Notes: generated by a model from the letters alone, not told the origin. 46,127 nucleotides of DNA from Asterionella formosa (GCA_002256025.1 NKIB01014205.1:1-46127); one strand, 5' to 3'. Shown: positions 22,652-25,079, numbered from the stretch's first letter. Translations and numbers: made by a program.

Positions 22652-23629
22652 TACTTCACTGACATGGGAACACTGAAAAAATGTGGGTTCCTGTGAAACA
22701 CTGAGATTGTGATCATCATGTATGTACCACCTGTAAAACGAAAAATATGATAATATAAACTAAAGAAATGCAGAGCGAAGATATGTTTTTGGATCTGCCT
22801 TTTCTGTCGTGGTTTAGAATACCAAAATAAATTTGATATACTGTACATCATATACAGTGGATATGGATAGCCATCTAAGGTGTTACCGTACAGATCCTAA
22901 AGTTTGAGAAAACGAAATGGTTACAACCACCCAAGCCGCAGTATTTTCAAATACTGAACAGCTGCAATGCTGTTAGAAAAGAGTAAAATGCTCTCCAGTG
23001 CAAATGTCAAGCTTGGTGTCCTGTTACATATTTAATAAAGAAACAACAATAAACAGGCAGCCATCAGAAAAGAATAATGGGGAACTGACAATTCTGGACA
23101 CTACATACAATTCCAGATTACAATAGACTAGTACTACTGGTACATTTCATTCACTTCTCAAACAAAACAGCAACTCCAAAATTGTGTTGCAGTCCCAACC
23201 CTGAAGAAAACTGCTGGTAGAGTATCAGCGCTATGATTCACATGACTAACTAGACTGAAATGTGGCAATTATACACTGATGGGAAAGCTAAGCAAGACAA
23301 TAGGTACTATGACATTTCAACCACAAAATAATGAAACCAGCAGTCTTAACATTGTTGACAAGGGGGTACAATCCTGATATATCCAGCTACAGTGGTGAAC
23401 CATCATTGCAGTCATAACATGGAGATGCCAGCTGGACTAGTGGTAACATGGATGTTACCAGGAAAAACGCACAGAGGAATCCACATTGCCTGGTAAAAAA
23501 CATGGAAAGTCAAAGGCCCAACTGATATAATAGAACCCAATGCGAGCTAATGCAATCAGATGAAGCAGAAACTAAAATAAGTGAATTCCATTTGCACCAT
23601 ATAAATTGTTCATTCCTCTTATTGCCTAT

Positions 23630-24871
23630 TTAGTTGGTCGCAGGCTCGTCTTCCTTCTTATTCTTGGCTGCCTTGCGCTCCAGACGAGCCTTGGCGCGTC
23701 CCTTTCTGGCATCTGCTTGGTCCACAAGGGCCTTTTCCTTGACCTTGACTGCCTTCATTTCATGAATGGTCTCAAGGAGGACACGCTTGTTCTTGAATTG
23801 ATTACCCTTGGCCAGCATATAAAGCGAGTGATGAATGTGCTTGTCAATCTTTTTGGCATCTCGCATCTTTGTCAATAGACGACGAAGGACTCGGATACGG
23901 CGCATCCAAATCACCTTGAATGGGAGACGGGCGTTGGAAGTACCTCGGCGCTTTCCGGTACCTGTGTATGTGTGTGAGTGACATGTGATCCTAAGTGTGT
24001 GATAATAGTGCATACTTGTTGTGAAATGTAGCAACAAATATGCGTGGAACGCGGACCGCCAGTTGTCTGGGCTGGCGAATGGTGCAAGCCCCTCGTACTC
24101 TTTGCAGAATGCGAAACGAACTCGACCATTCATATAGTCTTGCCCCGGTTGTAGAAGAAGAAGCGACTACAAACGCTTGTTCCCGATAGAGATGCTGCAT
24201 GCAGCATCACCCAAGGCATGTACGATTTCTACGACTTCTTCTCGCCAAGCAACTCACCAGTGTGTCGTCCCTTGCGCTTGGCTTCATTTCTCAACTGAAC
24301 GCGAGCCCGGGAATGAACGATAGCAGGCTTCTTGATAATCAGGCCATCACGATGCAAGCGAGTAATGTTGCGTCTCGAGTTCGCCAAGGAAATTTCATTG
24401 ATTTCATTGGGGTCCAACCAAATCTTGCGTTCTCCGCATTTGAGGACGGAAGCGGCGAGGCGCTTTTGAAGCTTAAGAGAGACTGTACGAACAAGAAAGA
24501 GCAGGAGTGAGAACAACATAAGGAGCGGCCAAATTACGGTAGCTAGTAATGCTATCTGACGGAAGGAACCAATACCAACTCCGGCGATGAAGCCTCACTC
24601 ATCGACATGATAGAGGCAGCAGCGTCCAGAACAAATATGAGAGCGGATCCGATGACAAGCAGCCCGCAATGAGCCCCAGAACCTATTTATTGACTCTGTC
24701 GACTCAACACACCATGGCGGCGTTCAATCCGTTCCTCGATTGCTGGGGCTTTATTCTGGTTTCTTTCCTAGCAATGCCTTTCATGCTCGTCTAGCGGTGC
24801 TCATAATTGCATTCAGCATGATCAATCCATTCAAATTCAATCGATTCAACAACAAAGAACGACATACCCAT
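23630..24871 (-). CDS. RPL19: 60S ribosomal protein L19 (eL19), 3 exons (24871-24868, 24482-24258, 23961-23630), 186 aa
   Basis: [66 protein letters not shown]; introns of 385 and 296 nt, GT-AG. Confidence 0.95.
24010..24218 (-). ncRNA. Candidate structured intronic RNA (H/ACA snoRNA-like or splicing-regulatory element) in RPL19 intron 2
   Basis: Contiguous stems incl. an 18-nt palindrome, a GCAA-capped long hairpin, a 12-bp stem, and an ANANNA (AGACUA) box directly after the first domain. Confidence 0.5.
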
Positions 24872-25079
24872 GGTCAAGAAAACAACGAAAGTGCCTTTTG
24901 ACGGCTGCGCACAAAATTCACTGTCAGAAGTGGGCCTCGTATCTTTTTCGTGTAGACTTTACGACGATGAGACGAAGTAAGGCCGGTAAGTTGGTCCTCT
25001 TGTCTGCCTGTAGCTTTTAGTTGCTACCTGTGGTGAATGTGCGTAGGACTTGTCTGTGTGATGACACACGATAACCCTA

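Follow-up and report, generated by a model that had tools for sequence, protein, structure and literature searches.

A conserved folded RNA in an intron of the diatom eL19 gene is probably a box H/ACA snoRNA for helix 35 of 18S rRNA

What is the folded RNA in intron 2 of the eL19 (RPL19) gene of Asterionella formosa, and does it act within the pre-mRNA or as an RNA of its own? The gene lies on the minus strand of a 46,127-nt stretch of DNA (GCA_002256025.1, NKIB01014205.1:1-46127; hereafter the window, whose coordinates are used throughout), and its exon translations are typical of eL19. An earlier note, made from the sequence alone, had described a contiguous fold (24010-24218) in this intron and offered two readings of it: an atypical H/ACA RNA or an eL19 feedback splicing element. 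We propose that intron 2 probably encodes a box H/ACA small nucleolar RNA (snoRNA) guiding pseudouridine formation in 18S ribosomal RNA (rRNA), at the uridine equivalent to U1290 of yeast and U1347 of human. The first of the two readings thus stands as far as covariation, RNA contigs, AGANNA and ACA boxes and a pocket on a known 18S pseudouridine site are concerned; its weak side is an anatomy that is incomplete.

Folding of the sense strand of 24010-24218 gave -76.5 kcal/mol, compared to -58.95 ± 4.26 for dinucleotide shuffles (z -4.12), and none of 200 shuffles did as well, so that the fold is better than chance. The antisense (plus) strand gave a z of -2.00, with 3/200 shuffles equal or better. 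We assigned the structure to the sense strand because G-U pairs are frequent: many of those in the last hairpin (b) become A-C on the opposite strand. Most of the proposed helices were borne out. The closing stem of the 5' domain, the 18-nt palindrome, the long hairpin with its GCAA loop, the GCCAG/CUGGC hairpin and the 12-bp stem were all found in the sequence and in the minimum-free-energy fold, AGACUA comes right after the 5' hairpin, and the intron is indeed 296 nt long (24257-23962). Other details changed. The letters of the suggested UUGUAG/CUACAA hairpin are there, but the best fold forms an 11-bp stem instead (GGGAACAAGCG / CGCUUCUUCUU), which is kept in the orthologous locus L001 too. 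The ACA in the loop of the small hairpin is not an ACA box; it belongs to a conserved loop, CCAGACAA. Finally, the 3' limit had been set too early, since the conserved part goes 29 nt further, to 23981, and this extension holds the 3' strand of a pocket, a 4-5 bp basal stem and an ACA at 23986-23984. The parts of the RNA, from 5' to 3', are the following.

24209-23996, minus strand: stretch covered by 100%-identical contigs from RNA libraries, minimum stable RNA
24218-24141, minus strand: 5' hairpin domain, 78 nt (fold)
24218-24211 with 24148-24141, minus strand: 8-bp closing stem of the 5' domain (fold)
24208-24191, minus strand: palindromic hairpin of the 5' domain (fold)
24184-24155, minus strand: upper stem of the 5' domain, 14 nt from the hinge box (fold)
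24190-24185 (UCUAUC) and 24154-24149 (CUACAA), minus strand: pocket-like strands of the 5' domain
24140-24135, minus strand: hinge box AGACUA, H box of the ANANNA form
24131-24077, minus strand: extra hairpin M, GCAA loop (fold)
24076-24058, minus strand: extra hairpin a, stem GCCAG/CUGGC (fold, covariation)
24070-24063, minus strand: loop of hairpin a, CCAGACAA, complement of 18S UUGUCUGG
24057-24053, minus strand: 5' strand of the basal stem, GGUCC
24049-24044, minus strand: 5' strand of the pocket, guide element UUCCAC
24043-24010, minus strand: hairpin b, upper stem of the 3' hairpin, 12 bp in the window (covariation)
24009-23992, minus strand: 3' strand of the pocket, with guide element ACUA (24009-24006) and motif AUCAC (24003-23999)
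24000-23998, minus strand: second ACA, specific to the window
23991-23987, minus strand: 3' strand of the basal stem, GGAUC
23986-23984, minus strand: ACA box, followed by the tail UGU to 23981

Orthologous introns were obtained by scanning metagenomes with exon 3 as the query, which yielded 22 related eL19 loci. Thirteen of them have an intron of 267-375 nt at the identical codon position; in the others, exon 2 is joined to exon 3 (six loci), the contig starts within the intron (one, L008) or the structure differs (two). The 13 introns represent nine distinct sequences, making with the window ten sequences from about eight lineages. Their 5' halves are hard to align, and their 3' halves contain invariant blocks (the loop CCAGACAA(C), GGUCC, UUCCACGC, UGUACU and GAYYACAU) with variable, compensating stems between them. 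RNAalifold recovered two hairpins with compensatory changes in 9/14 pairs. We then computed pair statistics on a plain MAFFT alignment with a three-helix structure (18 pairs) and 500 shuffles. Paired cells amounted to 91.4%, versus 78.3% in shuffles, two-sided changes were found in 9/18 pairs, and no shuffle reached any of the five measures, so the covariation proposed as a check is indeed there, in two hairpins of the 3' half. Sliding the partner columns by 1-3 positions dropped the pairing to 28-47%. Two-sided changes affect four of the five pairs of hairpin a and 5-6 of the nine of hairpin b, where 94-96% of cells are paired, and the figures were unchanged with 11 distinct rows (L008 and a distant locus, L010, added).

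A covariance model built from the intron alignment and run on 23 sources matched 16: the window, the 13 intron-bearing loci, and two outside the training set, L008 (65.6 bits) and L010 (32.6 bits, E 2e-6), neither of which had been used in building it. The other seven gave no match. Conservation of the element hence spans lineages whose eL19 proteins are only 63-94% identical.

Judged from sequence, the conserved parts look to be arranged as in box H/ACA snoRNAs (hairpin-hinge-hairpin-ACA), except that two additional hairpins follow the hinge. On the 5' side, hairpins of 72-82 nt closed by GCC/GGC occur in the window, L001, L002, L003 and L015-17, and their closing extensions covary. AGANNA directly follows the closing GGC in six of eight diatom lineages (the same ones plus L014); the hinge departs to AGANNG in L004 and L010, and L009 has only AUAUAA nearby. 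All orthologues have a hairpin at the position of M, with loops that are mostly GCAA, GCAG or GAGA, and GCAA is found even in the distant L010. On the 3' side, a hairpin with basal stem, pocket and upper stem was found in 11/11 distinct sequences. UUCCAC is nearly invariant, ACU is invariant directly 3' of hairpin b, and the loop of hairpin a is invariant in ten of the 11 sequences, as many as have ACA after the basal stem (GAYY-ACA-U). The second ACA lies in a CA-rich stretch that is absent from L001, the sequence most like the window's.

The intron is present in RNA libraries. For the intron alone, 24 runs were listed; 20 of them, from 11 studies, contain it in whole or in part, and 17 of these are recorded as RNA; 13 runs contain 0.64-0.68 of the intron's sampled words, that is, a part only. 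Four RNA runs from four studies were mapped, as assembled contigs, onto 23600-24900. Three of them (X7, X10 and X11) gave contigs 100% identical to the intron core and to nothing else: 24003-24209 (207 nt), 24000-24209 (210 nt) and 23999-24209 (211 nt). The deepest run, X9, gave two, at 24037-24209 (173 nt) and 23996-24066 (a 92-nt contig), likewise 100% identical; an Illumina adapter tail abuts 23996 in this run. At 24209 none of the contigs has a loose end. Exons, intron 1 and the flanks of intron 2 had no cover in X7, X10 and X11 and low cover in X9, which we do not count as evidence. Since assembled contigs cannot fix the ends of an RNA, we regard 24209-23996 as the smallest extent that an RNA accumulating on its own would have, and the stop at 24209 shared by the four runs is at most a weak hint of a true end. 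The 3' stops (23996-24003) fall upstream of the ACA box, just after the second ACA. Either the ends were lost during library preparation or assembly, or the mature RNA of this species would lack both basal stems.

We next asked what such an RNA could recognize. The window contains no rRNA, so eukaryotic 18S sequences were fetched from contaminants of prokaryote assemblies with a universal 18S primer, and every U of a full-length 18S (1805 nt) was scanned for the bipartite pattern of an H/ACA pocket. One site, UUAGU-[UG]-GUGGAG, ranked first in 10/10 intron sequences, with arms of 5-8 and 3-4 bp. UUCCAC pairs with 1292-1297 (5-8 bp) and ACU with 1287-1289 (3-5 bp), and the uridine between the arms is number 1290 on a yeast-like copy, whose numbering was right at 7/7 modified positions listed in the table of PMC5699541. 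For the window, 3/1000 shuffles of the guide strands reached the observed score. The pocket target is found in 25 of the 31 contaminant 18S sequences. The site is a known one: pseudouridine 1290, in helix 35, is assigned to snR83, and its human equivalent at 1347 to ACA4 (PMC9715914, PMC5699541). In the 5' domain, the best 18S match of the window's pocket is the uridine beside the main target (yeast 1289; 7+3 bp, two of them G-U), which was not counted as evidence; the site comes only second or third in L001, and other lineages have no clear 5' pocket. This match may be due to chance, be a remnant of hairpin duplication, or represent a second guide for the UU pair.

These observations suggest the following mechanism. 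A box H/ACA-type snoRNA of about 215-240 nt would be freed from the spliced intron 2 of eL19. In the pocket of its 3' hairpin, UUCCAC and ACU(A), flanking the covarying upper stem, would pair with 18S on either side of an unpaired U-G, and so offer the pseudouridine synthase, Cbf5/dyskerin, the uridine equal to yeast U1290/human U1347, in helix 35 of the 3' major domain. The loop CCAGACAA, carried by the hairpin just 5' of the basal stem, and the motif RUCAC, which together complement 1297-1309, would probably provide accessory docking helices.

The loop of hairpin a can form 8 bp with 18S 1302-1309 (yeast numbering), as the exact complement of UUGUCUGG, a word with a single occurrence in the 18S of 1805 nt, located 12 nt beyond the target uridine on its 3' side; pocket and loop matches were jointly reached by 3/3000 shuffles. 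RUCAC, in the lower part of the 3' pocket strand (AUCGU in L009), complements GUGAU (1297-1301) in ten of the 11 sequences, and GUGAU exactly fills the 5-nt gap that separates the loop duplex from that of the pocket. Adding up pocket arms, loop and RUCAC, 22 of 24 consecutive 18S nucleotides (1286-1309) are matched in 10/11 distinct sequences, and the two left unmatched are exactly U1290 and G1291. In L014 the loop match is shifted and of 6 bp, and there is no RUCAC. The 18S words bearing on this complementarity are UAGUUGGUGGAGUGAUUUGUCUGG. The match of RUCAC was noticed post hoc, and its strand direction demands that the rRNA turn back inside the pocket. Among the 31 contaminant 18S sequences, GUGAU is present in only 16 (plants have GCGAU) and UUGUCUGG in 20. 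Cover of 18S by k-mers of the whole RNA was uninformative, with shuffles reaching the observed value in 103-493 of 500 trials. It is tempting to see here a target recognition with four elements, which would grip 22 of 24 nucleotides of helix 35 and its 3' flank and in which loop and RUCAC form a 13-bp split helix on 18S 1297-1309, an undescribed accessory docking module kept together with the eL19 link from diatoms to a distant GC-rich alga. We regard this as a tentative idea, less likely than the guide function itself. Such a module would explain the over-long pocket strand, and might enable the RNA to keep the 3' major domain open while the small subunit begins to assemble, a function suspected for yeast snR83. 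A literature search found nothing on point for accessory pairing by H/ACA guides.

The distant relative just mentioned, L010, belongs to a GC-rich organism; its eL19 shows 63% identity, and neither of the two intron sites is occupied in its coding sequence. The covariance model found its match ahead of the start codon and on the same strand, with a GT donor on one side and a polypyrimidine-CAG acceptor on the other. As read from these signals, the element probably sits in a 5' untranslated region (UTR) intron, and the link between the RNA and eL19 would thereby outlive the loss or absence of coding-region introns. The putative intron (L010:671-1094) measures 424 nt, reads AGAAG|GTGAGC ... CCCCGCAG|UAC and ends 20 nt upstream of the eL19 start. 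The region retains the GCAA-capped hairpin, the CCAGACAA loop, UUCCAC, ACU, AUCAC and GAUC; its global fold (z -0.14) is uninformative. Two further similarities were seen on the 5' side. The core GCAUGC of the palindromic hairpin (window 24191-24210) recurs, with a different stem, in L001 and in the putative 5' hairpin of L010, and the 9-mer GUGAUGCUG at the 5' end of the RNA contigs recurs near the start of the L010 intron (regions concerned: L010:688-696 and about 780-800).

A number of observations count against a box H/ACA guide. The two conserved hairpins between hinge and 3' hairpin make the layout non-canonical. Instead of the usual 15±1 nt, the upper stem and ACA are 16 nt apart in L014 and L010 and 18-20 nt in eight other sequences, and the window has 23 nt between them. 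No two-sided covariation is seen in the basal stem (GGUC/GAYY), which consists of just 4-5 bp and varies only between G-C and G-U; L010 has AAA in place of ACA. The RNA contigs begin 9 nt into the 5' closing stem and miss the conserved ACA by 12-19 nt. On the target side, pocket arms are short, the weakest guide (L002) is equalled by 87/1000 shuffles, and the 18S sequences come from unrelated eukaryotes and not from the diatom itself. The Rfam scan suggested in the earlier note was run and matched no relevant family: none reached the gathering score in the window, no H/ACA family appeared up to E 10 in the gene region (where the chance hit was SNORD27, E 3.5, in exon 3), and none up to E 5 in intron 2 of eight orthologous loci, the SNORA4 model included. 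As to the anatomy, the basic rules for H/ACA RNAs, the 15±1 nt included, have been described as 'neither sufficient nor absolutely essential' (PMC8522698).

A related function was also considered. The RNA could be H/ACA-like and non-modifying, a folding or assembly chaperone of the 18S 3' major domain that would clamp 1286-1309 through four short duplexes, comparable to snR30/U17 or the processing domain of snR10. The 22 of 24 nucleotides complemented by four conserved unpaired motifs point this way, as do an accessory loop that is better conserved than the pocket arms and a pocket-to-ACA spacing off the rule for modification; yeast snR83 itself has been found in an early 90S intermediate, on the same subdomain (PMC9715914). 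However, the pair left free is exactly U-G, its U is a pseudouridine conserved from yeast to human (PMC9715914), and pairing flanks the hairpin in the topology of a canonical pocket. We therefore hold a purely non-modifying role to be unlikely, although guide and chaperone roles are not mutually exclusive.

It is more improbable still that the intron merely hosts a stable non-coding RNA of some other, undescribed class, in which ACA and AGANNA are coincidental. The lack of an Rfam match, contig ends that leave out both basal stems, and an unusual layout of five hairpins would agree with it, at the price of a threefold coincidence, in box positions, in pocket topology and in matching a known pseudouridine site, against a joint shuffle control of 3/3000. 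Box C/D RNA was rejected as a specific class: UGAUGC is found at the 5' end of the contigs, with no D box.

The second reading of the earlier note, a cis-acting structure by which eL19 (or a different factor) would regulate how its own pre-mRNA is spliced, has precedents. Autoregulatory introns of ribosomal-protein genes, such as those of yeast RPL30 and RPL22B, work in cis, as rRNA mimics to which the gene's own protein binds. Like them, the diatom element is a conserved RNA structure within a ribosomal-protein gene intron, and its link to eL19 is kept even in L010, where it stands upstream of the coding sequence; two loci (L013 and L007) without intron 2 but with intron 1 also hint at an unusual handling of the gene's introns. 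Unlike them, its conserved single-stranded motifs are antisense to 18S, as expected of a guide acting in trans and not of an rRNA mimic, and the element is found in RNA libraries separate from exons, as the intron core alone and not as pre-mRNA. Nor is there a fixed distance between ACA and the 3' splice site (22-102 nt), for which reason we also rejected GAYYACAU as a branch point. Because the motifs are antisense to rRNA, the splice-site distance is variable and the intron position differs in L010 (5' UTR), feedback by eL19 is disfavoured, and we give it very little credence.

That the segment is structured but functionless, or a decayed repeat, is scarcely credible, as only the palindrome (24208-24191) would suggest it, against covariation, conservation across eL19 proteins of 63-94% identity, and a gene region with no repeat family, in which a repeat search found only short chance repeats. 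Identity with snR30/U17 was also considered and rejected: the m1 and m2 motifs known from U17 are not present in the diatom RNA.

A box H/ACA guide for U1290/U1347 would make the diatom RNA, by virtue of its predicted target, the functional counterpart of yeast snR83 (RUF3) and vertebrate ACA4 (SNORA4), with which it would share the same conserved uridine of 18S helix 35 and the box H/ACA layout. Chicken ACA4 is intronic as well, in intron 9 of EIF4A2, and guides with its 3' hairpin through 7+5 nt (PMC2653536), and snR83 is also unusually long, at 306 nt (PMC9715914). The diatom RNA differs from both in its eL19 host, its two extra hairpins, its accessory matches to 18S 1297-1309 and its spacing of 16-23 nt. 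Furthermore, snR83 also guides U1415, whereas no conserved second 18S target was found in the intron sequences. It is thus most likely a counterpart by function, with an expanded architecture and without detectable sequence homology. More distant parallels are snR30/U17 and snR10, described as H/ACA-type RNAs that pair beyond a simple modification pocket (PMC2664660, PMC2879522); their motifs and 18S/25S target regions are other ones, and the pocket of the diatom RNA looks canonical and falls on a site of known pseudouridylation.

Our literature search found no description of a diatom H/ACA snoRNA in titles or abstract openings, and nothing on point for snoRNAs hosted in RPL19; H/ACA snoRNAs of diatoms seem to be barely described. 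The present RNA is an example for which the predicted target is clear, namely one of the 18S pseudouridines conserved from yeast to human; its link to the eL19 host gene is conserved, and the covariance model detected further members. Should the accessory pairings prove functional, target recognition by H/ACA RNAs would extend outside the pocket, and the spacing rule used by snoRNA predictors would be relaxed.

The host gene has the following parts in the window.

24871-24868, minus strand: exon 1, ATGG (exon translation)
24867-24483, minus strand: intron 1, 385 nt, directly after ATGG
24482-24258, minus strand: exon 2 (exon translation)
24257-23962, minus strand: intron 2, 296 nt, phase 1, G|GT...AG|GT, host of the RNA (splice sites, exon translation)
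23961-23630, minus strand: exon 3 (exon translation)

Intron 1 is long and fixed in position elsewhere too (324-374 nt in L007, L009/L012/L013, L014/L022 and L016). Its alignment across lineages showed no conserved sequence block, unlike the 3' core of intron 2.

Intron 2 itself is missing from some loci with close relatives that have it. L013 (1-1289) and L012 (116-1686) are 99.5-100% identical, and intron 2 is precisely absent from L013, which retains a 373-nt intron 1 and 2 kb of downstream sequence. L007, compared to L016 (92-96% identity), likewise lacks intron 2 and keeps intron 1. The covariance model found no other copy of the element on the L013 and L007 contigs. Partly spliced transcripts within mixed assemblies could account for this, as could loss of the snoRNA-bearing intron in some alleles or strains.

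About 1.1 kb downstream of eL19 in L014, the minus strand of L014:3540-3651 gave a SNORA61 hit of 22.5 bits (E 2.4), far below gathering and probably due to chance. Finally, an X9 contig on the end of exon 2 (24256-24303) continues into sequence whose translation (Y-G-R-R-K-G-T...) gives the beginning of exon 3 of eL19 from a related organism: it is the spliced or intronless eL19 of a relative, joined at the same codon.

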